Shown here: piece after piece, positions 922 through 56,190 of the stretch | Layout of the letters: every line of letters begins with the position of its first letter | How positions within the stretch are numbered: the stretch's first letter is position 1 | DNA from: Eledone cirrhosa | Taxonomy: Eukaryota | NCBI GenBank assembly: GCA_964016885.1 | Contig: OZ024742.1 | Coordinates: forward strand, 330,708,001 to 330,772,000 | Reading direction: 5' to 3' | Length of the DNA stretch: 64,000 bases | Translations under genes and position numbers: made by a program | Notes under the pieces: model-generated | What the model was told of the DNA's origin: nothing | What the model saw: only the letters and a program-made list of their open reading frames with translations | Database searches by the model: none

Positions 922-3794
<2,873 letters not shown>

Positions 3795-4086
3795 ATTAAT
3801 ATATCTGGCTTTCTGGAGAATAGAGGAAAGGTGTTTCCTCAAAAACCAGTATGACTCTAAAAACCGGTTTGTCTGTGTGTTTACATACAGAATAGCTGGA
3901 CACTCACAGTAAAGTGACCAGTGAAAAACTCGGTACATCTACATATGTATACGTGTGTGTATTCATATGCATACTAGTATTTCAGTATACATATGTGCAT
4001 GTACATTTTTAACTTAATTGTTTAAGTGTCAGTCATACAAAAGTGAGTTACAAATGAAACGAAATTTAATTTCGTTTCGTTATTTG

Positions 4087-5564: not shown

Positions 5565-5785
5565 TAAATGTGTATTACTGATTTAGAGCACTCAACCATT
5601 ACTGGAATAAATATTCAATGATATTAAATAAATGGAAACTATATTTATAAAACAATATTTATTTTATTATCTATATTTCAAGGGTAACCAAGAATAATAT
5701 TGGTACGATTTCATCAGATAAAATACACAGTTTGTTTTATAAATAGAGACATACCCATGAAAATCATACTTATTAGCTGGAAATT
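5565..5785 (-). mobile_element. Diverged copy of the family at 43467-44230
   Basis: Shares GATATTAAATAAATGGAAACTATATTTATAAAAC, the TTGAGTGC tail and a CTGATGA...GAAA core. Confidence 0.7.
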
Positions 5786-6746: not shown

Positions 6747-7054
6747 GTGAGGTTTTTTTTACAAAATAAAAAATAACCGAGGTGTCCTACACGAGTGGAA
6801 GTATAAAGAAAAAGAGATGAAATCGAAAATGCAACTGGAGTCTTATTTTTTAAAAAAATATATATATTTATTTGGTTCCTTTACCGGTTTCGCAGTTCTT
6901 CTGCTTTTCAAAAGGTGAGTTGAGATCAGACCCTCCATCTCAACTCACCTTTTGAAAAGCAGAAGAACTGCGAAACCGGTAAAGGAACCAAATAAATATA
7001 TATATTTAAAAAAAAAATAAGACTCCAGTTGCATTTTCGATTTCATCTCTTTTT

Positions 7055-7061
<7 letters not shown>
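6741..7061. mobile_element. Asymmetric palindromic insert: about 125-bp arms 6802-6926 and 6937-7061, 10-nt spacer, 61-nt tail
   Basis: Near-perfect inverted repeat between (AT)n runs. One HHR in each arm. Confidence 0.85.
6948..6985 (+). ncRNA. Minimal hammerhead with U3:A8 core variant (mirror copy 6878-6915, minus)
   Basis: CCUU-UUGAAAA-GCAG(AAGAA)CUGC-GAA-ACCGGU-A-AAGG. Confidence 0.7.
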
Positions 7062-7120
<59 letters not shown>

Positions 7121-10100
7121 ACATTAAAGCAAGGTGAAAAACCGTCGAAATAACTTTAGTCATTAGTCCTTCGTCCAGAAAGGAGGTAATAAAATAAGGA
7201 AAGCTATGAAGCCTGAAAAGGAAGATGAGATGTAATGGAAAAAGAAAAGAGACATGCTGTGAGGGTCGGTGAATACGTCGCCCGCTTATTAGAAATGAAA
7301 ACCTGCATTGTTTGCAATATTTTCTTGTCAGTTTATATCACAGTATGCAGGACTGTTTTGTCTAAAATTTTGAATATGTATGCATCATATTTGAAAACTA
7401 TTGTTTTAAAATATGTTATTTCTACTTTTTACAACATTAACAATCCATTCAAGTAGACACGCAATTCTATTTCATTTTCTTTAAATATGTGTAAGCTTGT
7501 AAGTGAATATATTGCATATTTTGCAAATATTGAATATATTTAAACCTTTCAAAGAAATATTAATTGAAGTACTTGGAAAAATAAATATATTTCCCAAACA
7601 AAACAAAATAAAAAAAATATATATATTTATTGTCATTAATAATTGTCAGGAACACAAATAAATTTAACTGCATAACGTAATTTGTGCATTTTTTAATGAA
7701 GTCCACTTTAAGTACCAATGAAGGTGTAGAACATATATTCGGATGTTGCGTTAAGGAAATAAAGATTTCGAGGATTCCATATGAAATTTCAAACTACATA
7801 GTGCCTCTTACATATGCAGTGACCAGATACCTCTATAGGTGCAATGATTCAGAGTTAAAATCTGGTTAGGCAAACATTGGTTCTCTCTAAAGTCTCTCAT
7901 TCCTATCTATATCATCATCTGCCTTCTTACCTCCATCTTCTGCCGTTATGATCTCTCCCTCTGAATAAAATGCAAGCCTCTCTCTTAATCTGTTTCCACT
8001 CACACTTTCTCTCTCCCATTCTAATTTTATCTGTCGATCATCCTTATTTTACTACTTCTAAAACCGCCACTAAACATTTAACACAATCTGAAATTCTCCA
8101 TTTGTACTTAGATACACATCCAAGTATGTCGCCCTCTAGGCGCCTCTTTTGCCTTAGCCTCCCTTGTTCTCCAACATAACATAATTTCATCTTAAAATAC
8201 GGTTCATTGAGAAAACTAGTTGTCGACACCTCTTTGTCTGACTGAACTAAAATACTTACTAAACTTGTCTTTTCAGCTTCACACACCACACACCTTCACG
8301 CTGAAGACGTTTTTTTTCTTTTACAGTATCACCTCTTCAGCACATTGGATATTTCCATAAACTGCTACGTGGCAAATAATTCAAATGGTTTATTTATTCG
8401 AAAGAAATTATTATATACTAAATTTATTCATACTATTTTTTTATAAGACAGTGATTATTTATGGCTAAGTAGTGCGCCTCTCTGACATCTGTACTCTAGG
8501 CAGATTCTTAGTTGAAATTAATAGATGGCGTCTGGATTGCATAGATGCTCCTACTCCTCATCGACTCCAATGCCAGACTATTCCGAACACACATTGATTT
8601 AATAACATTTTCTCGGAAAAAAGAAACGTTTGTAAATGGTCCTCCAGATTGTTACTGATGAATGCAATTTCTATTTACCTAAGACTACAATTTCTACATA
8701 CAGTAATTACAATAAATTTTCATATGGGCTAAGTCGATTGACACTTACCCGCTTTAGTAGGTAATCTGTTGCTCTACCATTCGTAAAAGGTTTCGTTTGA
8801 TTTCTGGTTCGGGTAATGCGCTGTGTTTTGAGAAAGGCATTTTATTTTACCTTGCATCTAGTGCATTCAGTTGCAAAAATTTGACTTGTTCCTGCATTTC
8901 ATTCAGATAGACTTGTCACATCTGGTATCATTTTTCATCTCCGTGAGGATAAAGTTAAACGAGTTCAAGTCAGAGGAATTCTCAGCCACTTACCTGTATA
9001 TTCTCGGAAGAGAGTGTTCTCTTGGAACAACTATAACGCTCTTCGCCAGAACCGATTGAGATCCCAAAACGATTTTTGCCGTTGATAGCGAACTGAATAC
9101 CAAATATAAAATATGTATTTATTATATGCTGTATAATTTACTAGTTCGATATTTCAATATAATCGTACTTATAGATGTTTCTACTGATAATATTATAAAT
9201 ATCTTATTCTGTGATCGATGAAAAGTGTCTGACAGATTCAATTTACCTAATATTGATTTGAAACATACCTTCACACGTTATGTGATTGGAATTTTGATAT
9301 TTCGAAAGTGTTTCTCTTTAATTCATTTTAGCCAGAGTGTAGCTAAATTCCAGACATTTTGTACATTCTAAAATGTTTTCTAAAATGTTTTCATATAATT
9401 CCAAAACACCTTTTTGTTGATTGGCCTTTTCATTTCTATCTTGTCATTTATGTCCGATGATTTAATTGCCTACATCATGTTTGGTTACTTTCTTTTGTTG
9501 TGGAAATCTCATTAGCTTAACTTATATTTTCAATTTCTAACCTCCACATATTTTTCTCATTTTGATCTTCAATGTGGTTGATGGTGTATGAATTCATCAA
9601 TTTATTTACGATATATATAACCGTCAATCATTCTTAGACGCATGAATTAAGTTCAACATGTCAGTGAACAATTCAATAAGAAAGTATTTCTTCAGCTATC
9701 TATTAAATGATGTGCAAGTGTTACAGTTTGTGCATATAAATAAAGATAGTCATTTTGAACGACAACACAAGTAACATTTCATACACTAAGTATCTATGGA
9801 AGTTCACAGATGATATCTACAGAAGTTATTTCTCTGAAACTTTAATTACAATCGTACATTCATAAAATGTGCATTCATAGAAACGTAAATCTATTAATAA
9901 ATCTTGCAATGAAACAGAATCCCATTTGTTTTATATCCATTGCACTCTGGCGCGGAACACCTTTGCGCAGGACGTAATTTCTTTAAGAAAAACTAAATTC
10001 CAAAAGGGTGAGTCGTTAGCATTGACAGATTTCATGCGGAATTTTTCCTTTAAAAAATGTAAGTCTATTTTCAATGGAGCCGTAGTTAACATTGCTTATA

Positions 10101-10876
10101 TTCCTTTCGGGTTGGATAACTGAAATCACCACTCAAGGATTTGAGGTTAGGTATTTCCATATTAATATGAGCTAGATTATATGTGAATGGAAGAAAGATG
10201 TAAGTAAATTGTGAATGGAATTACAATAAAAACTTTCAATTAACCACTTCATTTTAAAGGAGACGAGAGTTGTATTGCTGGTTATGACGAGTATTCCACT
10301 AGATTTGATCAACAGAAGAATATGTTCATGAGATTAATGAGAAATAGGATGATGAATACAGGTTAAACTCATGTTTTCAATCTGAGAGGACTGGAGATTG
10401 GTGATATATCGTATCTGGTTGAATGGCAACATACACCACAGAGAATTGAACACACGGCTTTATAATTCATGGCTGAGCACCAGAACCGTTGACCCTCATA
10501 TCCTTAGAGATTAAACATTTACGCACTAGTACAATTTCTGTATGAGCATTATAAATAATATAGAATATGTTTCAGTCTGCAGAAATTATATGATACGGAG
10601 AAGTCGTATGTTTTAGCAAGTGGCATAGATTACACATACGGTTTCAATTAAGCAAGCGTTTTAAAAACTTTCTGTTCTAGAACATTCAACAATGACATAT
10701 GTAATCTCAGCTTATAATGTCAAGTCTAATTATCAATTAAAATACACATATTGATTATTAGTAGAGGCTGATAATTAAACATGTGCAAATGATATGATGA
10801 AATACATTTAAACTACATTAGAAAAGCATGAATATTATACAAAGACACACACACATATATATATATATATTCATGA

Positions 10877-10909
<33 letters not shown>

Positions 10910-10924
10910 GTGTGTGTGTGTGCG

Positions 10925-11021
<97 letters not shown>

Positions 11022-11052
11022 ATAAATATATATATATATGTATATATATATA

Positions 11053-11534
11053 TATGTATAAATAGTTCGTATCTCCAAAGAAATACAGTTTTAGGAAGCC
11101 GTATCTATGCAAACACCGGGGGGTTAACGCCCTATAGTGATGTCCAGCAGAAGCAAGCGGGACAACCGTCTATGCATTTCAGACTTAACTATCCTTCGTC
11201 AGGACGGTCCCTCCCACCGCTTGCGACTGCTGGACTAGAAGACAGGTGATAATATATACTTTTCTCGTCTGTGTAAATGAGGTGATTAATCTCATTTGTA
11301 TATGAAGCTGCATAAGTTGGCTCAACTGATAATAAAAAAGAAATAGGATTTCTCTTCAAGCAGAGCTTTATACAATATGTATAAATATTTCGTATCCCCA
11401 AAGAAATACAGTTTTATGAAGCCGTACGATATGCAAACACCGGGTGGCTAACGCCCTCCTAAAACTGTATTTCTTTGGAGATACGAAATATTTATACATA
11501 TTGTATGAAGCTATCCTTGAACCGAAATCCTATT

Positions 11535-11541
<7 letters not shown>
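11053..11541 (-). mobile_element. Candidate retrozyme family B: 323-nt tandem unit (about 1.25 units) plus inverted end
   Basis: TTCGTATC..AAAGAAATACAGTTTTA at 11066 and 11389. 11458-11541 is an inverted copy of the 3' end with a 40-nt tail. One HHR per unit. Flanked by (AT)n. Confidence 0.8.
11165..11208 (-). ncRNA. Type I hammerhead ribozyme, intact core
   Basis: ACCGUC-CUGACGA-AGG(AUAGUUAAG)UCU-GAA-AUGCAU-A-GACGGU. 6-bp stem I and palindromic stem III. Confidence 0.85.
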
Positions 11542-11590
<49 letters not shown>

Positions 11591-11595
<5 letters not shown>

Positions 11596-11709
11596 AACAA
11601 GTAAGACCCCCTTGGGGTCTTACTTGTTCCTATTACCCACTCTACTACCCTAAGTATTGAGTACTTTGGTGCGTTATGGTCCACCTGGTTCCTTACCACA
11701 TTTCCTCCG

Positions 11710-11711
<2 letters not shown>
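11591..11711 (+). mobile_element. Miniature asymmetric palindrome: 20-bp perfect hairpin plus 78-nt tail
   Basis: ATAGGAACAAGTAAGACCCC-CTT-GGGGTCTTACTTGTTCCTAT, then a tail containing TTGAGTAC. (AT)n on both sides. Confidence 0.7.
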
Positions 11712-11757
<46 letters not shown>

Positions 11758-12028
11758 GTATGTACACGTACATACATATATGTATACAGACGTACAGTAG
11801 TATGTATATATATACACATACATGCACATGCATATATATATGTAGGTATGGATTCACCGAACATTTATTATAATGCTTGGCGTGTTTGTAAACAAACATC
11901 CCGTATTAAGCCGTAGCGTCTAGCAACCATCGTTGCTCGTTTGTTCAACACTGACTAAAGAATTGGGCTACTCAGCCGTTAATATGCATAAGGTAAGTAT
12001 ATACATTCAACAATCTGGTAGTAGGTAT

Positions 12029-12071
12029 ACGTTGCTGACGATAGCTCATAAGCTTGAAACTAGTACAGCGT
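12029..12071 (+). ncRNA. Type I hammerhead ribozyme (family C, unit 1)
   Basis: ACGUUG-CUGACGA-U-AGCU(CAUA)AGCU-U-GAA-ACUAGU-A-CAGCGU. Confidence 0.8.
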
Positions 12072-12546
12072 TCCTTTGTCAGTGTTGAACAAACGAGCAA
12101 CGATGGTTGCTATACACTTCTGCTTAATACCGGATGTTTGTTTACAAACACACTGAGCATTATAATAAATGTTCGGTGAATCCATACGTACATATATATA
12201 AGTGTACATATATGTATATATTTATACATGCTACTGTACGTCTGTATACATATATGAATGTTCGGTAAATTCATACGTACATATATATTTATGTGTGTGC
12301 ATGTATGTATATATATATATATATACATACTACTGTACGTCTGTATACATATATGTTTGTACGTGTACGTACTTATATTTAAGTAACAGCCGTACTAAGA
12401 GTGGGAAATGAAATTTCGTTTCATTTTCTCCGTTTAACGTTTTCGGTGCACCCGGCCGATTAACCCACTCGGTATGCAAATTGGGCTACTCAGCCGTTAA
12501 TATGCATAAGGTAAGTATATACGTTCAACAATCCGGCAGGAAGGTG

Positions 12547-12589
12547 ACGTTGCTGACGATAGCTAAGAAGCTTGAAACTAGTACATCGT
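12547..12589 (+). ncRNA. Type I hammerhead ribozyme (family C, unit 2)
   Basis: Same fold with loop II AAGA and one stem I mismatch. Confidence 0.75.
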
Positions 12590-12970
12590 CCCTTTGTCAG
12601 TGTTTAACAATCGAGCAACGATGGTTGCTAGACACTACGGCTTATTACGGGATGTTTGTTTGTTTACAAACACACCAAGCATTATAATAGATGTTCGGTG
12701 AACCCATACGTACATATATATATGTGTGCATGTATGTATATATATATACATACTACTGTACGGCTGTATACATATATGTATGTACGTGTACATACTTATA
12801 TTTAAGTAACAGCCCTATTAAGAGTGGGAAATGAAATTTCGTTTCCTTTTCTCCGTTTATCGTTTTCGGTGCAGCCGGCCGATTAACCCAGTCGATATGC
12901 AAATTGGGCTACTCAACCGTTAATATGCATAAGGTAAGTATATACGTTCAACAATCTGGCAGAAAGGTAT

Positions 12971-13013
12971 ATGTTGCTGACGATAGCTAATGAGCTTTAA
13001 ACTAGTACAGCGT
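12971..13013 (+). ncRNA. Hammerhead (family C, unit 3), probably inactive (G12U)
   Basis: Same fold with loop II AAUG, but GAAA reads UAAA. Confidence 0.65.
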
Positions 13014-13274
13014 TCATTTGTCAGTGTTGAACAAACGAGCAACGATGGTTGCTAGACACTACAGCTTAATACGGGATGTTTGTTTACAAACACACCGAGC
13101 ATTATAATAAATGTTCGGTGAATGCATACGTACACATATATATGTGTGCATGTATGTATATATATACACACTACTGTATGTCTGTATACATATATGTATG
13201 TACGTGCGTGTACATACTTATATTTAAATAACAGCCGTACTAAATGGGAAATGAAATTAAGTTTCATTTTCTCC

Positions 13275-13341
<67 letters not shown>

Positions 13342-13452
13342 TATATAATGCATGTTTATACATGTATATATACATGCTTGTTTGTGTGTATTTATTTATA
13401 CATATATATGTATGTATCTCTCTCCCTGTATATAAATATATATATATATATA

Positions 13453-13664
13453 TTAGTTTTAATATAGATGAGATTCTACAGGACTAGAACTGTTTCATTC
13501 TTTAGAAATCATCAGGAAAATCCTGATGATTCCTTATGATTTCTAAAGAATGAAACATTTGTAGTCCTATAGAATCTTATCTATATTAATACTTTTATAC
13601 TCTGCAATGTATTGAGTACCTTACTTACTGTGGTTACCTTCGATTCAACCCGGAATAACGTACC
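13453..13664. mobile_element. Asymmetric palindromic insert with partial HHR
   Basis: Arms about 13453-13512 and 13536-13593. Minus arm reads CUGAUGA-U-UUC(UAAA)GAA-U-GAAAC. Tail carries TTGAGTAC at 13612. Confidence 0.7.
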
Positions 13665-13690
13665 TATATACACACACACACACACACGCG

Positions 13691-13783
<93 letters not shown>

Positions 13784-13794
13784 GTATATATATA

Positions 13795-13837
<43 letters not shown>

Positions 13838-14614
13838 ATAGATTCAGGGCTCGACAGTGGAGCTCTTGCCAGTTAAAGCACAAACGCGAAACCACCATTG
13901 AAGCGACCAGAAAAAACGCACAGTCATGCACATACGTATTTTATCTGTCTGTCAAGTGTTCTCAAATGATCACCAACCGGTTTGTCGGTATGACAACTGC
14001 GGTTGGTGTTGCTGTTTCGAGTGTGTTTGTTATATTTGTTGCGGTTTGTAGTGGTAAATTCTGTTGTGCTTAAACATATTTTTGCATTATTTTTAAATAA
14101 ATCATTATCAAATAAATAAATAATAAATAAAGAAATCATTATTTTACTTGGTCATGTGCATATTTTTACATTTTATTTTAGAAGAATTCTAATATTGGCA
14201 TGTGTGTGTGTCGTAATGTTGGGGGTGCCTCTGGGTACGTATTATATTTGTATGTATGTAGGTTACTCCTTGCCTCCAAGTGTGCGGTTTGTGTGGAACA
14301 TAGAGGCGTGTTGATATTTTGATTTTTTGGCTATTCAGTTTAGTCGTTCTAAGGTCACCGAGGGTGACTGTGTGTGCGTAGTGGTGCTGCTTTCGGAGGA
14401 ATAGTTATTGTTGCTTTAGTAATGGAATCTGTGGATGGAGGTTATAGTTTCTGTGCAGCATTTCGATGGGTGTCGTGGAGCCGGGTTTTGGGGAGTAAGT
14501 CATTATAGGTTAAGTTTTGGAAGTTCAGGTTGTGTTTGATTCGAATATACGAGGTTGTGTGTATACAATCAAAGATACATATATATCTATGGTTTTGTTA
14601 TTAGTTGGTATGTG

Positions 14615-17820: not shown

Positions 17821-18406
17821 CGTTTCTGAATTTGTTTAGCAAGATTCTTTATCTGAAATCGTTTGTTGAAACCGATATTGTTATACTTTGGGAGGGTCAT
17901 GTTGCCAATAAGAAACATACGCACCAGTTGCTTTCACTTCAATTTATTATATATTTATAAATTTAAAAATTTACAAATCCACAAATTTATAAATTTCTGG
18001 TTGGTTGGTTGGTTCCACAACCAGATAGTTGTTTATATATAGTCATAGTCCTTTCGTCACACACTCTGTGACCTCTTCAGTGACTGGGGATTCCTTTCTT
18101 TGTTTCTGTGCCTTTCCTTTCTTCTGTCCTACGCCATTTTGTTTCTGCGTAGGACAGAAAAAAGGAAAGGCACAGAAACAAAGAAAGGAATCCCCAGTCA
18201 CTGAAGAGGTCACATAGTGTGTGACGAAAGGACTATGACAATATATAAACAACTATCTGGTTGTGGAACCAACCAACCAACCAGAAATTTATAAATTTGT
18301 GGATTTGTAAATTTATAAATTTATAAATATATAATAAATTGAAGTGAAAGCAACTGGTGCGTGTGTTTCTTATTGGCAACATGACCCTCCCAAAGTATAA
18401 CAATAT
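17821..18406. mobile_element. Asymmetric palindromic insert: 260-bp arms 17875-18134 and 18147-18406, 12-nt spacer, 54-nt tail
   Basis: Near-perfect inverted repeat, also seen as mirror-image ORFs in the track. One HHR per arm. Confidence 0.9.
18041..18085 (-). ncRNA. Minimal hammerhead (mirror copy 18196-18240, plus)
   Basis: AGUCA-CUGAAGA-G-GUCACA(GAGUG)UGUGAC-GAA-AG(GA)CU-A-UGACU. Confidence 0.75.
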
Positions 18407-19481
18407 ATAGGAATGAAAAATGCCGTGCTGTTTTGTTGCGGGTAGATACATATGAAGTAAATATTAGAAAGAGAAGCCTGGACTATCCTTCATTAGTGAT
18501 CTACTAGCCATCAAAGGTATTTCTTCGCATTAAAGATCAGATACCTCCGGCCAGCGCGAACAATAATTAAATAAGTTATTAGGATAAAAAGAATTGGATT
18601 GAGAAAGAAAGACAGGTGAACAAACAAAAATGGTGGGGCAACGTAAAGAGAGGAAAAATGAGAAAATTAAGTCAGTTATTCATTTGAACATAAGAACTTG
18701 CGAACATTGACGAGAAGACGAAATACCATTTGTATCGTGCGAAAAGTGAGCGAGAAAATAATTTCGTACGGTGCTGGACGATGGAGTAAGTGAGAGAGGG
18801 TGAGTAGCAGAGAGTGAGTGAAAGTGTGAGGAAGAGGCTAGTTGAGAGAGGGTGACTAGCAGAGGGGGAGAATGAAAGTAAGAGAGAGAAGGAGAGAGAA
18901 GGATGGGAGGGACAAATGGAGTGCTATGTTGTTGCATAAACACAGCACGCCATTTTTCATTCCTATAAGCTTTCCCCTTCGCTGTGACCTGTCTTTTTCT
19001 GTTTCCTTACTGCTATCCTCTTTTTCTCTCCCATTTCTCTCTCCTCCTTCTTACTTTCATTCTCCCACTCTGCTAGTCCCCTCTCTCGACTAGCCTCTTT
19101 CTCACACTTTCACTCACTCACACTCTGCTACTCACCCTCTCTCACTTCCCCCATCGTCCAGCACCGTACGAAATTATTTTCTCGCTCACTTTTCGCACGA
19201 TACGGATGGTCTTTCGTCTTATCGTCAATGTTCGCAAGTTCTTATGTTGAAATGAATCACTGACTTCATTTTCTCATTTTTCCTCTCTTTGCCATGCCTC
19301 ACCATTTTTGTGTGTTCACCTGTCTCTCTTTCTCCACCCAATTCTTTCTATCCCAATAACTTATTTTAGTTATTTTTCGCCCTGGCCGGTGGTATCTGAT
19401 CTTTAATGCGAAGAAACACCTTTGATGGCTAGTAGATCACTAATGAAGGATAGTCCCGGCTTCTCTTTCTAATGTTTACTT

Positions 19482-19482
<1 letters not shown>
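18406..19482. mobile_element. Older asymmetric palindrome with about 455-bp diverged arms (18454-18909 and 19028-19482)
   Basis: Inverted arms. The outer tail 18406-18431 is also inverted at 18942-18967. Degenerate CUAAUGA..GCAAC core. Confidence 0.8.
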
Positions 19483-21764: not shown

Positions 21765-22013
21765 CGTTAATTCGATGCAACAGCCCCTGCAGACACACAT
21801 ATATATGTTATATGTAATTGCACAAACACACACATACATATGTGTGCAAAGGTAAGCATGAGTTATATTTCAAACATAATATATTGCAATCCACACACAA
21901 TGCCGGTACCAAATCACATCAACATGTATTTGTCCTATTATATATTTTCTCCATCTCTCTTGCCCTCCAATATATACCCTCTATATTATGAGCAGATTCT
22001 ATTCTGAGATAAT

Positions 22014-22202
22014 TGTTTCTACTTTAGGTACAAGGCCAGCAATTACCCAGTACATTACTGGTACTTTATTTTATCGACCCCGTAAGGATGAAAGGTAAAG
22101 TTAACCTCGGCGGGATTTGAACTCAGACTGTAAAGGGACGTAACTATGCTAGAAAGCATGGAGTCTAACCTTCGACCGATACTGCCAATTCACCGCCCTT
22201 AA
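22014..22202 (-). mobile_element. tRNA-derived SINE (family S1) with 13-bp TSD
   Basis: A box (TGGCAGTATCGG) and B box (GAGTTCAAATCC), core CCTTTCATCCTTACGGGGTCGATAAAATAAAGTACC. TSD ATTCTGAGATAAT at 22001-22013 and 22203-22215. Confidence 0.9.
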
Positions 22203-23856: not shown

Positions 23857-24044
23857 TGGATTGGCAGTATCGGTAGAGGGTCGGACGCCATGCTTTGACG
23901 CATAGAGTTACGGCCCTTGCCATTCTGAGTTCAAATCCCGCTGAGGTTAACTTTGCCTTTCATCCTTACGGGGTCGATAAAATAAAGTACCAGTAATGCA
24001 CTGGCATAATTGCTGGCCTTGTGACAAATGTAGAAACAATTATT
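23857..24044 (+). mobile_element. tRNA-derived SINE (family S1)
   Basis: Same sequence as 51651-51835. Confidence 0.9.
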
Positions 24045-24379
24045 TCAACACAAATCAACGAGGTAATTGTCAAAATCATTAATGCATTAGCCATACATAT
24101 ATGTTACGATAATCTACATTATAAATGACACTGTTAAGAATAAAGTATATTTGCCAATATTCGTACACCTCTTTTCCTCATACTAATGCATATTATATAG
24201 TATGGGAAAAAGAGGTGTACATGGGTTTTATGGGTATATTTAGAAACGTTTCTGGTACGTGGGGCTGAACATTTCAAATAGGTTCATAACGTATCCGCCT
24301 TAATCAATCATTAAGCCAATACTCGACGACCACTGATGGCAGAAGGATAAAAATGCAACACCAGTCAACTGTCCTATAG

Positions 24380-27769: not shown

Positions 27770-30700
27770 CTACAGGCTGATATAGAGAGAAGGCCCATTC
27801 ACTCGGGCCATTCTCGCCACTTTCACCCACCTTTCATAAAACTTGCTGGGGTACAGCACCTCTCTCTCCATCCTGATTCTTCTTCCAAAGTGGTATTTGA
27901 AAAAAAGAATCAGTTGTTGGCCGGAGAGAAAGGTGTCTGACCTCAGCCTTTTCAACCTTGTCCAAAATACAACCTCTTTCGCCATAGCTATCACACAAAG
28001 CAAACCGCCTCTCCTTCGTTTTTGAAGGAGGGTGGCGGTTTGATCATGACTATGGACTCGGTGGTCAACTGGATTGGTCCCACCCTCGACAATAGTCGTT
28101 CTACATAGCCCCACAGGTCAGTGACGCCCGGGCAGTGTATGAATGCGTGCGCGACGGTTTCTTCGTCTCGCACGCACCTCGGACAGATTTTTTTTGCAGG
28201 GTCCCTGACCGGGCGCCCATGTCTGTAGAGCTTGTCTCGAACTGGTAGAGCTCCTCGGTAGCACTGCCAGGCCAGGAACTTTTGGAAGTTGTCCATCGGT
28301 CCCGGGCGGAAGGTCCTACCGAACAGACTGGCCAGTTCATCTTCCTCTACATCTAGAGTTTCACCGAGCGCGTCGTCGCACTTGCTGCGGACCAACCCTC
28401 TATAGAATGACAAAGTGGAGTCACCACTGATCGCCGGGTCCGCCTGCCAGAGGGATGTGAGCGCCTGAGCACATTCGATGTGCCGGTCGCCCATTTTCCT
28501 CGGTCTTTGCTTGACCCAGGATTGCAGCTCGGTCAGAAGACGAGTCGTGGGAGGCTCGCCTCACGAACGGAGCCCACACCGGTTGTCCGGTGAGTAATAC
28601 GTAGAGATGCCGCAGCCTGAGCGCGTGTTTGCGCATCGTCAACCACGGCATCCCCAGCCCTCCGTTAGAAGGGTGTTGGCAGCAGATGGATCTTCTCACC
28701 AACGGAACCCGCCTCTTCCAAAGGAATCGGAAGAGCGCGCGCTCCATTTTGGCGAGCGTTTTGGCTGGACAAGGCACGACGGTCAAGCGGTAGTAGATGG
28801 CGGACGCTATAAAAGTGTTCGCCACCTCAACTCGAGCTTTCAAGGATAGTTTGCACTCGGCCTACTTCTGGGTGAGTGCAATCACTTTCGCCGTCACTTC
28901 GTTCCAGTTCTTCTCCACCTGGAGGTCCGGACCAAACCTGACCCCGAGCAGCTTTACCGGTCCTTCCGTCCAGCGTCCGACGACGCCATCGGAAGGCATC
29001 GGTCTGCCTCTCCACGATCCGAGTTGCAAACTGATGGACTTGTCCCTGTTCAGCTTCGCTCCTGTGAGACTTTCGTATTCCTTCAGTAAGGTGCCGACTT
29101 CCTCGATTTGCGAGGCGCTCGACACCATTACTGTAACGTCGTCGGCGTAGGCCGACGCCGCTTTCCGCAGTCCCGGTTCCAGAGGGATGCCCTGCAATAG
29201 CTGCAGCTTCCGCAGTAGTGGCTCGAGAGTCAGTACGTACAGAAGGGAGGAGAGAGGGCATCCCTCTCGAATGGATCGCGTAATACGGAACGGCTCCGAG
29301 AGGTAGCCGTTCACCTTGACCCTTGAGCAGATGTTGCTGTTGTGTATTGCAGCAATCCAGCCCCTGAACACGGGTCCGAAGCCTGCCGCCTCGAGCACCG
29401 CATCCAGGTAACGATGGTCAACCCTATCGAAAGCCTTAGACTGATCCAAGTTGATCAGAGCCCCACCGAAGCCGGGCTTACACTCTACCCTCTCTATGAT
29501 GTATCGCATGAGGTGGAGGTTGTCGTGTATGGACCTGGTCGGGATTGCGCATGTCTGCGCTTCTCCCACCAGGTTCTCGATGACAAGCGCCAGCCTCTTT
29601 GCCAACACCTTGGCCAAAATCTGTAACTCTGTGTTTAGCAGAGTTATGGGCCGGAAGTTGCCTATGTCATCCCCCTTATTCTTGTCCTTCCTGATTAGTG
29701 TGACCACGCCCCCGGTTACAGAACTGGGAATTCTCCCGTTCTGTTGCCGGTTGCAGTAGACCGCTTCCAGGAGACCGGAGAATAAGTCCGGCATTGCTAC
29801 GTAAAATTCGTAGGGTAGACCGTCGAGACCTGGAGATTTGCGTTTGCCGCATTGGCTCAGCGCGTCCCCTATCTCAGTGGCTGAAATCGGCTTTTCGCAG
29901 AACTTTGCCCCGCTGTCCGAGAGTCGCGGTAGGCCGTCGAGGTATGGACCGTAATCCATAGCCTCTCCCGGCGCGCCGCTCCCCCCGAACAGCCGAGCAA
30001 AGTGCCGCTGAAAAGCCGCACACATCTGCTTCGGCTCACGTATCACGCGTCCGTTTTGGTCCTTCGACCGAATCGTGGACTTGTTGCGACGTTTGCCTCC
30101 GTCACTCCGGCCCAGCTAACAGCTTTGGTTCCCTCGTTTCCCAGAGCACATATTTTGCTTCTGACAACGCAGCCCTCGTGCTTTGCGTCGAAAAACTGCT
30201 CCAAGGTCGTTATCGTTGCTAGCACGCTGGCTACGTTGCCACTTCTAATTGCCTCTTCTACTTTATCTACCAGTTCCTTCTCGTTTCTATTTCAATCTAA
30301 CGCTAATTCTTTACTAAAAACTATCGAGTCTAACCTAACTGCCCTCTTGAGAGAGTACCACCATCTGTTGTTGACAATGGCCCCTGTCAAGTGCTGTTTA
30401 ACTAAAGTGCTAATCCGTCTACTGTAGGCTTTGCTTGTCGGTAGCGACAAGTTCAGCTTCCAGTAGCCGGGTCCTTGTCTATGGGTTCTATCAAGGTTGG
30501 CCATGCAGGTCACTAGTTTGTGATCTGAATAGGCAACCATGAACATTTGTGGACAGCTTAACATGTCCCTATCCGTATTTCTAACTAGAACCCTATCTAG
30601 GTACGATCTAGATGTTCCGCTACGATTAGTCCACGTCCACAGTGGCACAGTCGGAAAATCTAATCGATATCTATCGGCCAGGTCAAATCGGTCTATTAAC

Positions 30701-31204
30701 TGTTTGAGGCTGTTACACCCCTCTTTATCGGGACATGCTCCACATAGTACAAACGTGCATCTAGGATTCCATTCCAGTCCCCCACTAAAATCAAGGAGCG
30801 GGACGTTCCCAGAAAAGTCTTTAGACGTTTGAAGAAGGCTGGCCGCGGTGTCCCAGATGGGGCATATGCGGCCACCAGCCTGAAGGCTCCACCTTCACTA
30901 CCGTCAACGTCTAGAACCACCAGTCGACCCTCCGGGTTCAGATGTACTGTCTGTGTTACGAGGCCCAGGTGTTTCCGCAGCAAAACGGCAACTCCGCCCC
31001 CACCCCCCACCCCGGTTGACAGAGAGATGCGTAGATCTCAAAGTCATCGAAGATGGGGGCCAGCTGTCGCTCGCCGTGGATCCTGGACCCGCAAATGGCT
31101 ACCACATCCATACTGTGCGACCTGAGGTTGTTTAAGAGTTTGCCATGTTTCCAGGGCATCCCCAGGCCGCGTACGCTCACACATCCAACTCTTATATTGG
31201 CCAT
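27770..31204 (-). pseudogene. Tx1 ORF2 (APE endonuclease, RT, C-terminal Cys/His domain), frameshifted
   Basis: MANIRVGCVSVRGL, ILVGDWN, SYLDR..SDH, GPGYWKLN, SPGLDG, FRPITLLN, DQSKAFDRVDH, GCPLS, AYADD, CPRC..ETVAHAFIHC. Confidence 0.92.
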
Positions 31205-36526: not shown

Positions 36527-39500
36527 GAAAACCCCGTGACCAAGAAATACCGGGATGGCGGCCGGCGGGGAATAGCCGTGTCTCTAGGGGAGAACGACCC
36601 CTCCAGTCTTGGTTGACACTCGTTCTAGAAGTGGTAACACGAAATGATTACCCCTTGGCGGATAAGGATAAAACGCGACAAAATAAAGTAAATGTCTAAT
36701 GATAAAATCTCATACCGGATCGGCCGTCACCCGGGTAAAAAAGGGCCGCGTCCCTCGGAGAGGAACCAGACTGGGGTCGAAAAATCAGCTAATGGTTCAA
36801 ACCTTCCCATCACTTCGGAGCTGGAGACCTCCCATAACCGGAATACTCCTACTGTTGGCCCTCCATGCTCACCACCAAGAAATCCAAAGAAAAAGAGAGA
36901 AAAATGGTCAAGGGAAGATAATAAAGAAGTCCTTGTGGCTTTCTACACTGCCATGTACTACCCATCAAATACATCGAATACAGAACAGACATATATCAAC
37001 TGGAAAAAGAAACATCCCGAAAACAGAGGCTATATTGACAGTAACAAACTAGCCAATATACGAACAAATATTGTAAGAAAAAAGTTACTAACTGATATAG
37101 AAATTGATCAGATCAAGCTATTAGCGCAAAGTCAGCGAAGGGAAAATGAAACATGTGTCAGGAAAACGAGGTAAATTGTAATACTTCGAATCCCAGGGTT
37201 GGGGCGGAATCACTGGCAACAGAACAAATTAAAGAAAGGATCGAAAAAGTGGAGGGAGTGCATGCTCAAGATGAAACTCCAAATGAAAATAATGAGATCG
37301 TAAATGATAAAGAAATGAATGAGAATGAACTTGCCAACTTGAAGGATGAAATTATGATCGAATGGATGAAAATGAAAGTATCTGACATGGGGCAACGAGA
37401 CACCCTCCCTAAGATCCAGAACTCCAAACAGAACCAAAAGATAATACACAAGACTAACATAATTCTCAAAAACATTATCATCACAAACAAACTAAACATT
37501 ACTGATTTAAATCATCTCTATTATGCATCGGCTAAAGTCACCACTCACTTATGTGGAGTGAAGATGAAAAAACAAAGGAATTACCACTAGAAATCTACTT
37601 GGCAAGAGATCATCAATCGCCAAATAAACCTTCTCCGATCTGACATAGAAATGTTAACAAACTATAAAGTAGGTGAACATGTTAAACAAACTAAACTTAG
37701 AAAATTGAAAAAAAAGTACTGTATAAAATCAACAAGTGACATAGACATGCTGATAGAAATAATCAAGCAAAAAGTGTCGGCCAAAGCTGCTCGTATAAGG
37801 CGCTTTGAAAAACGATCTAGATTCTATAAGGACAATAATATGTTCAAAAACAACCAAAGAAACTTCTACAGAAGAATTGTTAAGTCAACAATAACTGCTA
37901 AATCAATACCACCCAAGGAGGAAGTGCAAAAATTCTGGGAAAAGATCTGGGCCGAAGAAAAAGTTCTTAACATACAAGCCCCATGGATAGACAGACAAAT
38001 GAAAGATACAGCTCACCTTGAGGAACAAATATGGAAAAATATAACAGTTGAACAGTTGCGCTTGGCTCTAAGTAAAACCAGCAAATAGAAATCCCCAGGA
38101 AAAGACAAAATACAAAACTTTTGAATAAATGCCTTCACAGAGTCTCATGAGCTGTTAGCCCAACTTTACAATGAAATAGTTAAGGAGCCAGAAAAGATAC
38201 CATCATGGCTAGTTAACGGCATTACATTCCTGCTACCGAAGAATGATGAGACAAACAATCCCAAAATTACAGACCGATAACTTGCTTGACCACAATGTAT
38301 AACATGTTAACATCAGTACTAACTGAATACACATATGACCACCTGATAACAAATGACCTATTTCCCATTGAGCAGAAAGGGTGTAAACGAGGCTTATATG
38401 GCTGTAAGGATCAGCTTCTGGAGAACAAAATGATACTGGAAGATTGTCTTAATAGACACAAAAATCTATCGATTGCTTGGATAGATAATAAAAAAGCATT
38501 CGATAGTTTGCCACACAGTAGGATTGAAAAATGTTTAGAGATTTTAAAAATATCCCCCGTTGTCAGGAGGTTTTTGTCATTCAGTATGAAGACCGGGAAA
38601 ACGACACTCCTTTTGAATAGTGAAAGAAAATCACGGGAAGCTGGAGAAGATAATATTAATTGTGGAATTTTTCAGGGTGACTCTTTATCACCGCTTTTAT
38701 TCTGCATCGCTCTTATACCATTAAGTAAAATGCTCAATGAAACAAAACATGGATATAAAGTCTATGACAAAACCATTAATCACTTGTTCTACATGGATGA
38801 CCTGAAACTATTTGCAAAAAATGATGAACAATTGCAAGGGCTATTATCCACTGTGGAGCAGTTCAGTGATGACATTAAAATGGAGTTTGGACTAGATAAA
38901 TGCGCCAAAGCAACGTTCACCAGAGGAAAGCTGCTGAGGAGTTCAGACATTAATCTTGATCGGGGGAACGTGATAAGAGAACTTGATCAAGAAAAAACTT
39001 ACAAATATCTAGGTGTTTGTGAAGGAGACGGAACCAAGCACTCGACAATGAGGGAAAGGATAAGGAAGGAATGTTACCGCAGAGTAGGAGCAATCTTAAG
39101 AACGGAATTGAATGCAAGGAATAGGATCGATGCCATAAACACGCTTGCCATACCAGTAGTAACCTACAGTTACAATGCCATCAACTGGTCAAGCACAGAG
39201 ATCCGTAGGCTCGATACAGAAATTCGAAAATTCTTAACCATGCACAGAATGCATCACCCTAAGGCAGAAATGATAGAATATATCTCCCTAGGAAAGAAGG
39301 AGGACGTGGGTTAATCCAGTTAGACATTGCGTTGAAAACTGCAACAATTGGATTATCTACATATCTAAGGGAATCACATGATTGGATGATCAAACTCGTT
39401 TTGAAACACGAAAGCATCAAAAGATCATATTCCATTACAAAAGATGCACAAAGATACAGTAATGGACTAGACATTTCAGACGTCCCATTTACTGCTGAAA

Positions 39501-40481
39501 TGGAAAACACAGAAAAAGCAAAGCAGGTAAAAGTAACTGCAAAGAAAGAACTGCTACAGAAACTGGCTAAGAAATGGCAAGAAAAGCCTCTGTATGGAAA
39601 ATACCCAGAGCGAGCTAACATTCCTGATGTTGACAAAACTTTAACCCATCATTGGTTGGCATCCTCTGGACTGAAATCGGAGACTGGAGGACTGATTATA
39701 TCAGCACAAGATCAGTGTCTACCAACAAAAAATACCAAGCCAACATAATAAAAAATGGATGCAGCCCATTATGCCGTGTATGCAAAAAACAACCAGACAC
39801 CATTGACCATATAATTTCAATGTGCAGTCCTATAGCCCCAACCGAATACCTAAACAGGCATGACAGAGCTGCACAATACATACATTGGATAGTGTGTAAG
39901 CATTTTGACCTTCCCCATCAAAAGAATTGGTGGGAGCATCAACCACCTCCCATACTTGAAAAAGATCACATCTCAATCTTGTGGAACTTTAGCATCCAAA
40001 CAGACCGAAAAATAGATGCAATTAGACCTGATATAATAATGAAGGACTTTAAAAAGAGGGTATGCCTGCTAATTGATATGTCTGTTCCAATAGACAAGAA
40101 TGTATCTATAAAAACATTTGAAAAATTGAGCAAGTATAAGGACCTGGAGATAGAAATTGGAAAAATGTGGAAATTGGGAACTAAAACAATACCAGTGGTT
40201 GTAGGCGCTCTGGTAAGGATACCTAAGGGGTCTAATGATTACTTATCGCAAATCCCAGGAAACCCGCGTATAGGAGAAATACAAAAGATACTACTAATGG
40301 GAACTGCCCATATACTAAGGAAGATTCTGTCAATATAAATACATCACAAGTCTAAACACTAAAGATGCATGTGTGAGTATGTATGTTCTTTCTTGAACGT
40401 GGCGGACCTTGTTGTCTCTTGAGGTCACTGGTTGTGACTTGGTGATAACTCGTATGAACATAAAGCAAGATAAATGCAACT

Positions 40482-40513
<32 letters not shown>
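36527..40513 (+). mobile_element. R4/Dong-type RLE non-LTR retrotransposon, near full-length, decayed, (TAA)n tail
   Basis: Single broken ORF 36692-40338: Myb-like WSREDNKEVL, EQKGC, KKAFDSLPH, GIFQGDSLSPLLF, HLFYMDDLKLF, YKYLG, CRVC..HIISMC, RHD, RPDII..LIDMSVP..KLSKYKDL. Ends in (TAA)n at 40483-40513. Confidence 0.9.
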
Positions 40514-40514
<1 letters not shown>

Positions 40515-41345
40515 TTCTTTGAGAAAACTGAATTCAGAGATCCACAGACATGGAACTGGTTGAAAAGAGGAGACGTTAAAAAGGCTACAGAAGGAATGTT
40601 AATGGGTGCGCAGGAGCAGGCCCTCAAAACGAAGTGGTTGAAACACCACATTTACAAGGAGGAGGCTAGCCCACTGTGCAAGATCTGTGGAGAGAGAGAG
40701 GAGACTGTGGCTCACATTGTATCCGAGTGTACACCTAGCCCAGACTCACTATAAGGGCTGGAGACATGATGTGATGGGCAGGGTGATCCACTGGCACCTA
40801 TGTAAAGTAAACAATTTACCACATTCTGAGAAGTGGTATGAGCATAAGCCAGAGGCGGTGATAGAAAACGATCAGGTGAAGGTGCTGTGGGATTTTAGGA
40901 TACAGACGAACAAGAAACTGGAACACAATAGACCTGACCTGGTGGTTGTGGACAAAGAAAAAAGGTCGTGCCTGATTGTGGATGTGGCCTGCCTATTCGC
41001 CACGAGAGTGCAAGAGAAGGAGAGGGAGAAAATTAACCGATACCAGGACTTAAAGTGGGAGGTAAAAAGGATTTGGAACTGCCATGAAGTCAAAGTGGTC
41101 CCCATTGTCATAGGCGCACTAGGTACTATCTCAAAAAGTTTCCAGGGATGGTTAAGCAAAATTGGCCCCTTCACGCTTTTTGGAACGCTTCAAAAGGCAT
41201 GCTTGCTGGGAACAGCAAGAACCCTCCGATACATCCTGAATATCTGAGGCTGCAGGTAATTGCTTGATATTCATTCCAACGGACTTTCCAGTTAACCAAC
41301 ATCAATGACTGAGATTCAAGGAATAACAACAATGGTGATGATAAT
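40514..41345 (+). mobile_element. Second, 5'-truncated R4/Dong-type element of a different family
   Basis: TWNWLKRG..AQEQAL, CKICGEREETVAHIVSEC, RHD, NRPDLVV..VDVA..KINRYQDL, LLGTARTLR. Followed by a TAA/CAA tract. Confidence 0.88.
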
Positions 41346-43420: not shown

Positions 43421-43466
43421 TATATACATATATAACATATATATATATATATATATATATAACATA

Positions 43467-44230
43467 TACGATATTAAATAAATGGAAACTATATTTATAA
43501 AACCATATTTATTTCATTATATATATTTCAGGGATATCATATTAACAATATGTTATGCCTTCTTCAGACAAAATACAATATAGACAGTTTTATAGATAAA
43601 TAGATTTGACATACCGTTCAACATCGACTTGTATTTGAAAAAGTTGATTTGGCAGTGAAAAATTGTAAACAGAAAGAAAGAAAGAAAGAAAGAAGGAAAG
43701 AAAGAGAGAAAACGAAGAAAAAGAAGAAAAAGAAGAAATGCATGCAACAAAATAGAGAGATGGAAAGATAGATAAAGAGAAGAACTTCATGTAAAGAAAC
43801 AGAGAGAGATATATAGAGAGAGGAAATAGATAGAGATAGATATATATAGATATATATATTTTGTTGCATGCATTTCTTCTTTTTCTTCTTTTTCTTCGTT
43901 TTCTCTCTTTCTTTCCTTCTTTATTTTTTTCTTTCTTTCTGTTTACAATTTTTCACTGCCAAATCAACTTTTTCAAATACAAGTCGATGTTGAACGGTAT
44001 GTCAAATCTATTTATCTATAAAACTGTCTATATTGTATTTTGTCTGAAGAAGGCATAACATATTGTTAATATGATATCCCTGAAATATATATAATGAAAT
44101 AAATATGGTTTTATAAATATAGTTTCCATTTATTTAATATCGTAAATATACTCCAAATACTTGTTGAGTGCTTTTATATCAGTTATAAATATTTACTAGT
44201 TGTAACCCAACAATTTAAATATAACTTTCC
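43467..44230. mobile_element. Asymmetric palindromic insert: about 288-bp arms 43467-43754 and 43857-44144, 86-nt tail
   Basis: Near-perfect inverted repeat (mirror ORFs in the track). HHR-like CUGAAGA-AGG...CCU-GAAAUAUA at about 44044-44090. TTGAGTGC at 44164. Confidence 0.9.
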
Positions 44231-44456: not shown

Positions 44457-44459
44457 AAT

Positions 44460-44642
44460 AATTGTTTCTACTTTTGGCACAAGGCCATCAATTACTCAGT
44501 GCATTACTGGTACTTTATTTTATCGACCCCGTAAGGATGAAAGGCAAAGTTACCCTCGACGGGATTTGAACTCAGACCCTAAAGGGACGTAACTATGCTG
44601 GAAAGCATGGCATCCGACTCTCTACTGATACTGCCAATCCAC
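44460..44642 (-). mobile_element. tRNA-derived SINE (family S1)
   Basis: Reverse complement of 51651-51835. Confidence 0.9.
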
Positions 44643-44645
44643 AAA

Positions 44646-45333
44646 TGAAATAATATTTCGCTTCAAGCATAGCTTTATATAATATGTATAGAAATTTCTT
44701 ATTTCTAAAGAAATACGGATTTAGGAAGCCGTAGCGATACAATCACCGGGGCTAACGTCCTCTGGTTGTGTCCAGCGGAAGAAAGGGGGACAACCGTCTA
44801 TGCATTTCAGGCTTGACTGCCCTTCGTCGGGATGGTCCCTCCCACCTCTTGCTACTTCTGGACTTGAAAACAGTAGAGAATATGTAGTTTTCTCGCCAGT
44901 CAAGTCTGAATTGCATAGACGGTTGTCCCCCTTGCTTCTGCTGGACACCACCAGAGGGTTAGCCCCGGTGTTTGCATAACTACGGCTTCATAAAACCGTA
45001 TTTCTTTAGAAATACGAAATGTCTATACATATTGTATAAAGATATGCTTGAAGTGAAATCTGTTTCCATTACTATTATAAGTTGAGCCAACTTATGCAGC
45101 TTCATATGCAAATGCGATTAAACACCTCATTTAGAAAACTATATATTCTCGACTGTTTTCCAGCAGTAGCAAGCGGTGGTAGGGACCATCCCGATGAAGG
45201 CCTGTCATGCATGAATTTTATAGACGGTTGTCCCCCTCGCTTCTGCTGGACACCACCAGATGGTGTTAACCCCGGTGTTTGCATCGCTACGGCTTCATAA
45301 AAGCGTATTTCTTTAGAAATACGACATTTCTAT
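44646..45333. mobile_element. Family B, second locus: minus arm 44646-44897, plus arm 44898-45333 (about 1.4 units, period about 305)
   Basis: Clear similarity to 11053-11541. HHR at 44793-44836 (minus, core CCGACGA) and a degenerate HHR at 45185-45228. Confidence 0.85.
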
Positions 45334-45347
45334 AAACACACACACAC

Positions 45348-51288: not shown

Positions 51289-51473
51289 GATTGGCAGTAT
51301 CGGTAGAGAGTTGGACACCATGCTTTGCAGCATAGAGTTACAGTCCTTTATCGTCTGAGTTCAAATCCCACCGAGGTAAACTTTGCCTTTCATCCTTACG
51401 GGGTCGATAAAATAAAGTACCAGTAACGCACTGGGTAATTGCTGGCCTTGTGCCAAAAGTAGAAACAATTATT
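51289..51473 (+). mobile_element. tRNA-derived SINE (family S1)
   Basis: A and B boxes plus the same core and tail. Confidence 0.9.
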
Positions 51474-51650: not shown

Positions 51651-51835
51651 GCGGTGGATTGGCAGTATCGGTAGAGCGTCGGACGCCATGCTTTGACGTA
51701 TAGAGTTACGGCCTTTGCCATTCTGAGTTCAAATCCCGCCAAGTTCAACTTTGCCTTTCATCCTTACGGGGTCGATAAAATAAAGTACCAGTAACGCACT
51801 GGGTAATTGCTGGCCTTGTGCCTAACGTAGAAACA
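51651..51835 (+). mobile_element. tRNA-derived SINE (family S1) with 17-bp TSD
   Basis: TSD ATTATTTGTTTGATAGG at 51634-51650 and 51836-51852. Confidence 0.92.

Positions 51836-54540: not shown

Positions 54541-56190
<1,650 letters not shown>

Follow-up and report, generated by a model that had tools for sequence, protein, structure and literature searches.

Positions 11052 to 11540 of the window, by which we mean the whole 64-kb stretch of DNA that was analyzed, hold an insertion flanked by microsatellites, hereafter copy 1. Its features and those of its flanks are given below; the outer ends of the insertion merge into (TA)n, so that its limits are uncertain by a few nucleotides.

10855-11051, strandless: left flank, a (TA)n/(TG)n microsatellite and the presumptive target
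11052-11540, minus strand: whole insertion, an inverted 5' arm followed by a 323-nt unit bearing a hammerhead ribozyme (HHR), present 1.26 times
11052-11133, minus strand: segment A, the 3' end of the main arm (fixed end 1), which stops some 119 nt beyond the predicted cut
11134-11374, minus strand: segment B, the single-copy part of the unit, containing the HHR
11142-11235, minus strand: predicted extended helix I hairpin of about 26 bp, imperfect, with the HHR at its tip (fold of 11134-11260, z = -4.0)
11164-11209, minus strand: type I hammerhead with a 7-bp helix I, a full core, a weakened helix II (11195-11181) and a palindromic helix III (11177-11172); predicted cut between 11171 and 11170
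11375-11457, minus strand: segment A', an upstream, pseudo-LTR-like partial repeat of A, 5'-truncated at the inversion junction between 11457 and 11458
11458-11540, plus strand: inverted 5'-truncated arm, which repeats 11335-11418 in the opposite orientation with 76 of 84 positions identical
11502-11540: 39-nt "tail" on the inverted arm, running past fixed end 1 up to fixed end 2
11541-11593, strandless: right flank, a (TA)n microsatellite

An earlier note on this DNA had claimed a period of 323 nt, which was recovered as direct repeats at a spacing of 323 (11052-11103 and 11375-11426) and of 324 (11106-11133 and 11430-11457). Segments A' and A are identical in 75 of 83 columns (90%) and form a partial tandem of the pseudo-LTR type. 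The extent that the note had given to the insert (11053-11541) is direct repeat only in part, the remainder (11458-11540) being the inverted arm, which the note had overlooked. The repetition is limited to 83 nt of the unit, the direct part measuring 406 nt with one HHR, and the output of TRF did not report this repeat as an array. Since the direct part carries one HHR, the locus alone cannot excise a monomer or a circle. The unit has a GC content of 0.41. As the note had held, there is no credible ORF: the longest ATG ORF reaches 43 aa at most and the longest stop-free frame 74 aa at most, a Pfam scan of the two frames overlapping copy 1 returned no match, and an ORF starting at the AUG of helix III, considered by analogy with the Anolis Penelope-like element (PLE), stops after 17 codons. 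Both flanks are (TA)n, which masks any target-site duplication. An identity as an autonomous PLE was rejected, copy 1 being without an ORF for a reverse transcriptase (RT) and GIY-YIG endonuclease. So was a tRNA-derived SINE, a tRNA search having given none and a scan with the Pol III A and B box consensus no B box and only loose A-box matches.

The minus-strand HHR with a canonical core and a palindromic AUGCAU helix III described in the earlier note is found at 11209-11164 (core CUGACGA...GAAA, A17), beyond shuffle expectation, and its H17 falls at 11171, in agreement with the cleavage position that had been predicted (11171/11170). The pattern of core plus helix III has one occurrence in the 64-kb window and none in any of 100 shuffles, and a relaxed structural HHR scan gave four matches in the window, where 100 block shuffles averaged 0.01; because shuffled sequences almost never yield it, the motif is not a product of chance. 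Rfam returned zero matches at the gathering threshold over the whole 64-kb window, and at E<=10 over 9000-14000 its 129 sub-threshold matches were mostly microsatellite-driven miRNA models, hammerhead families being absent among them; the HHR assignment is accordingly one of motif plus stems, to which the Rfam models give no score. The six pairs previously proposed for stem I are all present, and an additional G.U extends helix I to 7 bp. The word "intact" in the earlier description fits the core and does not fit helix II, which in the canonical register consists of A-U, G-C and G.U pairs only and, as an isolated hairpin, comes to +3.0 kcal/mol with a pair probability of 0.003; folding favors a register-shifted stem of four pairs, two of them G.U (-0.5 kcal/mol). 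Most of the contigs of two sequencing runs of the sample introduced below (X1 and X2), making up nearly all of the depth, carry other letters than copy 1 at helix II positions 11183, 11191 and 11192, and by inspection the majority letters give four Watson-Crick pairs. As modeled, copy 1 is thus a decayed ribozyme, its catalytic core intact and its helix II apparently eroded relative to the family majority. The RNA of the unit is predicted to be self-paired both as a linear (z -3.67) and as a circular molecule (z -3.92), the HHR hairpin accounting for about half of the energy. In a two-strand cofold, the minimum free energy structure pairs through helix I instead of helix III, the palindrome duplex alone being worth -4.7 kcal/mol.

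A second copy of the family, 79% identical to copy 1, lies on the other strand of the window and repeats the same plan:

44643-45337, plus strand: family copy 2, inverted arm plus main arm
44643-44897: inverted arm with its own HHR (H17 at 44799, minus strand)
44898-45337: main arm of 1.44 units, with cut sites at 44917 and 45222

In an alignment of the six arm segments, both main arms stop at one and the same point of the unit, some 119 nt beyond the cut, and the inverted arms are seen to extend 39 nt (copy 1) and 38 nt (copy 2) beyond it, with tail boundaries that are uncertain by a few nucleotides in both copies. Two of two family copies in the window therefore have an inverted 5' arm and the same pair of ends, and the point of inversion differs between them. 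In all four arms that reach beyond fixed end 1, what follows is segment B of the unit again, without an ORF. A microsatellite or AT-rich flank is present at three of the four insertion ends, the inverted end of copy 2 adjoining a dispersed repeat (44457-44642) without a microsatellite there. Two of the sites at which A and A' differ are polymorphic in both copies, an overlap that at 7-8 differences per 83 nt may plausibly be due to chance and so does not serve to tell a heterogeneous multimer from a single circle. Two questions that the earlier note had raised, whether copies exceed one unit and whether they are only a fixed terminal repeat of a longer coding element, can be addressed within the window. 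Head-to-tail repetition amounts to 1.26 units in copy 1 and 1.44 units in copy 2, the latter being the longest direct run; and the successive cut sites of copy 2 are 305 nt apart with no ORF in between, which, together with the recurrent unit junctions, indicates that the unit is not simply the terminal repeat of a coding element. Both copy 2 HHRs in which the 5' core half survives have a U4-to-C change and a change in helix I in common, and the main-arm HHR has suffered further core loss, so that copy 2 in direct orientation offers one truncated and one core-mutant HHR. A tandem with two complete HHRs is found in neither of the two family copies of the window, and an identity as an active retrozyme, in the sense of two consecutive complete HHR units, was rejected for both.

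Outside the window, the insertion aligned to 3376 (X1) and 3287 (X2) Logan contigs and to 1727 (X5) and 1440 (X6) RAD-seq reads, counts that cover four of the seven listed runs, with X1 and X2 representing one sample in which about half of the sampled words were present, and with a depth that does not equal copy number. Identity to copy 1 was mostly 90-95% or less. The counts indicate a large family, plausibly of thousands of copies. Contigs exit into (AT)n at 11501, the position of fixed end 1 (12 in X1 and 13 in X2), and at 11332, which is about that of fixed end 2 (6 in X2), and at least five opposite-strand joints lie elsewhere, at differing positions, among the 15 of 27 joints listed. The pattern of the family is hence one of fixed 3' ends and variable inversion points. 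The inversion junction of copy 1 itself is spanned by one X2 contig, by only 27 nt, which is under the 31-nt threshold and falls short of an independent confirmation. The contigs are short unitigs, too short for unit counts; their summed depth over every bin of segment B is of the same order as over segment A. Pattern scans of metagenome contigs gave zero matches in both scans. A viral pattern scan gave at least 120 loci, and a single one among the matches listed (L088) has both hammerhead stems, each of 4 bp; it could be, and was treated as, a chance occurrence.

The unit has its closest counterparts in the animal non-LTR retrozymes (PMC7229834; bioRxiv 10.64898/2026.07.22.740005), with which it shares a non-coding unit of 305-323 nt, a GC content below 50%, a type I HHR, a self-paired fold and a high copy number; the size range that defines such units, about 150-450 bp non-coding with GC below 50%, includes both 323 and 305 nt. 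A one-base-pair helix III capped by a palindromic tetraloop is likewise found in the axolotl HHR_Amex1, a type that cleaves poorly as a monomer (PMC7229834). Retrozymes differ from copy 1 in being tandems of complete units where copy 1 has one HHR. Li, Clavereau and Pollet 2026 regard retrozymes as non-autonomous PLE derivatives, report solo monomers to be common, and reserve the term "active retrozyme" for two consecutive complete HHR units (available text of bioRxiv 10.64898/2026.07.22.740005). Term searches of the main texts of PMC7229834 and of bioRxiv 10.64898/2026.07.22.740005, as distinct from their figures and supplements, found neither an inverted arm nor a tail.

Both of these traits are, in contrast, familiar from PLEs. 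In the available text of Craig et al. 2021 (PMC8557442), PLE insertions are described as 5'-truncated and as arranged in partial tandems that make up pseudo-LTRs; next to them lies a further copy, inverted and likewise 5'-truncated, one end bears a tail of 30-40 bp, and a bias toward microsatellites or (TA)n masks target-site duplications, hallmarks that are restated in the accessible part of PMC8969392. Frangieh et al. 2024 showed in vitro that the Anolis PLE protein cuts both strands of AT-rich DNA and that reverse transcription begins internally at two points beyond the HHR, the distance between which corresponds to the tail, and they found an HHR-dead RNA to be inserted normally (PMC11167929, in the sections available). 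The partial tandem, inverted 5'-truncated copy, 38-39-nt tail and (TA)n flanks seen here thus recur in Penelope/Poseidon, Neptune and Naiad insertions, as does the placement of the HHR upstream of the fixed 3' ends in PLE insertions, to judge from the descriptions available. Because the partial tandem, the inverted arm, the tail and the (TA)n tracts all match these reports, we infer insertion of the PLE type. There are also differences: PLEs are 3-4 kb long and encode an RT/GIY-YIG ORF, whereas the present unit is about 0.3 kb and lacks one; and in the Anolis Poseidon PLE, as computed from what PMC11167929 provides, RT starts lie 85-92 nt past the cut instead of at about 119 and about 158 nt. 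The Chlamys PLE MRC1 (PMC8557442, as far as available) is similar in being non-autonomous and in having pseudo-LTRs and head-to-tail insertions, although Chlamys PLEs are green algal and mostly without a canonical HHR, and a homology to the 3' end of an autonomous element is demonstrated there. Naiads are without canonical HHRs, which makes an HHR-bearing partner clade the likelier one. The available portion of PMC13282606 mentions neither hammerheads nor retrozymes.

Like the minimal HHRs of PLEs in the accessible text of Cervera and de la Pena 2014 (PMC4209133), the present HHR has a palindromic helix III and is predicted to require a dimer, and copy 2 further resembles them in carrying HHRs on opposite strands 100-700 bp apart. 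Minimal HHRs are characterized in the same text by an extra nucleotide between 9 and 10.1, a G10.1-C11.1 pair, a long helix II and a short helix I. The present motif has instead a long extended helix I and a short helix II, with A-U or G.U in place of G-C at 10.1-11.1: helix II comprises 3-4 bp and helix I 7 bp, and the majority letters of the family fit the unshifted register. The shifted register of helix II is preferred in both window copies that were folded, yet with G.U pairs. By its sequence, the HHR of copy 1 appears closer to the canonical metazoan type I than to the PLE minimal type.

Taken together, the family is an animal non-LTR retrozyme-type unit inserted in the manner of PLEs, and copy 1 is neither an active retrozyme nor an autonomous PLE. 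The retrozyme identity proposed in the earlier note is therefore upheld for the family, as a non-coding HHR unit, and does not extend to copy 1, with its single HHR and 1.26 units. We consider it quite probable that copy 1 is an aged copy of a high-copy non-coding HHR unit of 305-323 nt, likely a non-autonomous PLE or animal non-LTR retrozyme, mobilized in trans by a PLE RT/GIY-YIG endonuclease. Weighing against this reading are the absence of an autonomous partner from the ORFs of the window, a sample of only two full copies, direct runs of no more than 1.44 units, start distances unlike those of the Anolis PLE, an inverted end of copy 2 that adjoins another repeat, and an inversion junction crossed by a contig for just 27 nt. 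By extension of the in vitro mechanism of the Anolis PLE (PMC11167929), a source locus of tandem units would be transcribed in the sense of the HHR, and the PLE protein would bind this RNA immediately past the HHR and would nick both strands of a (TA)n tract. Reverse transcription would then begin internally, about 119 and about 158 nt past the HHR cut, with one start per nick; the first cDNA would cross the cut site and extend over 1.26 units and the second would end after 83 nt, and the head-to-head joining of these two truncated cDNAs would leave an inverted arm plus tail. Given its palindromic helix III, the HHR is predicted to function only as a dimer, and its role at source loci with tandem units would be to trim or circularize transcripts. 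With a single HHR and, on the folding models, an eroded helix II, copy 1 would likely be a dead end.

The earlier note had read the circular permutation of the insert relative to the cleavage site as a sign of a circular or multimeric template. Since the insert spans the cut site, the template was longer than a linear cut-to-cut monomer, and that much of the claim is retained; the permutation gives no preference for a circle, because it would arise wherever an RNA of more than unit length is primed internally. Internal starts of the PLE type at fixed sites account for it better, and they do not discriminate between a circle and an uncleaved multimer. In a strict retrozyme cycle, dimeric HHRs would excise monomers, a host ligase would circularize them and the circle would be copied by rolling reverse transcription. 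The crossing of the cut site by the insert and the stable fold of the circular unit (z -3.9) are in keeping with such a cycle, and coral, mussel and axolotl units of similar size are circular by northern blot and RT-PCR (PMC7229834). One minority allele is common to the three arms of copy 1 (11087, 11410 and 11466), as expected of a single template, and no high-share change of the catalytic core is present among the 40 of 81 variant rows listed. Against it, the U4-to-C and helix I changes that the copy 2 HHRs have in common suggest a core-mutant template, the alternatives being arm-to-arm conversion or residual activity of the variant. In the Anolis PLE, moreover, RNA with a dead HHR is inserted normally, and the protein acts chiefly on RNA that has not been cleaved (available sections of PMC11167929), and only one of nine Xenopus dimers was cleaved in vitro (bioRxiv 10.64898/2026.07.22.740005, in the text available). 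We regard the strict cycle as a rather doubtful account, with the proviso that this estimate concerns the circle as template and overlaps with our preferred reading. The shared U4-to-C change, unless it reflects arm-to-arm conversion, suggests a leaning toward a multimer; within the PLE-type insertion that we favor, an uncleaved multimer would be the moderately probable template and a religated circle one to which we give rather less than even chances.

A further possibility is that an autonomous PLE ending in a short tandem of HHR-bearing 305-323-nt repeats shed both copies as 5'-truncated fragments, with no independent retrozyme cycle. The anatomy of the insertions is entirely PLE-like, 1.44 units is the most that either copy reaches, tandem minimal HHRs are reported for axolotl PLEs (PMC7229834), and most PLE copies are 5'-truncated (PMC8557442 and bioRxiv 10.64898/2026.07.22.740005, as far as available). 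This explanation is nonetheless unlikely. Past fixed end 1 the sequence continues with the unit (segment B), devoid of an ORF, in four of four arms, and no obvious common branch into foreign sequence was apparent among the 24 of 653 loose-end rows listed. The helix I of canonical length (6-7 bp) and majority helix II of 4 bp are unlike those of PLE minimal HHRs. No partner ORF was found in the window either: a GIY-YIG or PLE-type domain is absent by Pfam from its 116 ORFs (stop-to-stop frames of at least 70 aa past a complexity filter, a set that shorter decayed PLE fragments would escape), as is an RT/GIY-YIG ORF from copy 1, and the two RT-coding elements of the window are both LINE-like in appearance. 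Finally, a foldback or MITE-like DNA element, or a local duplication-inversion, with a chance hammerhead-like string would accommodate the short, non-coding, inverted arms and the lack of an HHR match in Rfam, but is very improbable given an inversion point that varies and outer ends at two offset unit positions, both unlike terminal inverted repeats, an HHR motif far above shuffles, and variation of helix II among related contigs that keep the core (loose-end rows at 11186 and 11190).

Under the preferred reading of a retrozyme-type unit inserted by PLE machinery, the class of element is already known, type I HHR repeats of similar size being common across animals and previously put forward as non-autonomous PLEs, and the gain is a modest one, namely an anatomy that links such units to the PLE insertion mechanism and that lets genome sequence test the need for cleavage and circularization in retrozyme movement. 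No description of the tail and inversion anatomy for retrozyme insertions was found in the openly accessible main texts searched. A bolder proposal, which we put forward only tentatively and think unlikely to hold in full, is that this anatomy amounts to direct genomic evidence for PLE integration of a retrozyme-type unit through two-site priming on both (TA)n strands, and that the copy 2 mutation would show uncleaved RNA to suffice, making cleavage and circles dispensable. If true, tails and inversion points compiled genome-wide would provide an in-silico test of the enzyme that mobilizes animal retrozymes, a step hitherto argued just from co-occurrence and pLTR homology. At least two further HHR families with related anatomy lie within the same 64 kb, making this genome a rich test bed.

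The first of these (11755-13278, plus strand) consists of an inverted 5' arm followed by three HHRs in direct tandem (cores at 12035, 12553 and 12977) between (TA)n flanks, with periods of 518 and 424 and a palindromic helix III ACUAGU; its outer ends differ by about 56 nt, the extension lying on the main arm. It is probably the first candidate of the earlier note and, as judged from its sequence, appears to be a better active-retrozyme candidate than copy 1. At 43464-44147 lies a near-perfect palindrome of 684 nt with an AT-rich type I HHR-like motif in each arm (H17 at 44093 on the plus and 43518 on the minus strand), of which a single relative, 78% identical, was found at 5620-5755. Palindromic insertions adjoining (TA)n or (CA)n occur at 17875-18406, 18454-19482, 6802-7061, 13279-13783 and 11591-11633 and are likely truncated, inverted PLE ends. 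That at 17875-18406 contains a hammerhead-like core near 18200-18245 in which one additional nucleotide precedes a helix II of 5 bp, which is typical of PLE minimal HHRs.

Other repeats in the window include a decayed LINE at 27994-31037 (minus strand), with AP-endonuclease, RT and zf-RVT Pfam matches spread across several frames, which we take to be L1/Tx1-like, and a decayed RT-coding non-LTR element at 36692-41244 (plus strand; RVT_1 at 38250-39311), presumably R4/Dong-like with a restriction-like endonuclease, a second 3' fragment of which follows a (TAA)n tract at 40483-40514. A dispersed repeat of 185 nt, of SINE-like size, is present in five copies that are 86-93% identical (22009-22193, 23857-24045, 44457-44642, 51289-51473 and 51655-51842), and 1-1128 and 2702-3804 form a direct duplication of 1.1 kb, 91% identical, to either side of a long (TA)n tract. 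At 54547-56076 (minus strand) lies an open frame of 510 codons with the start of a sulfotransferase domain at its end. An Atlas search with this frame gave Eukaryota only; the frame probably represents one large exon from a gene resembling those for heparan sulfate sulfotransferases.
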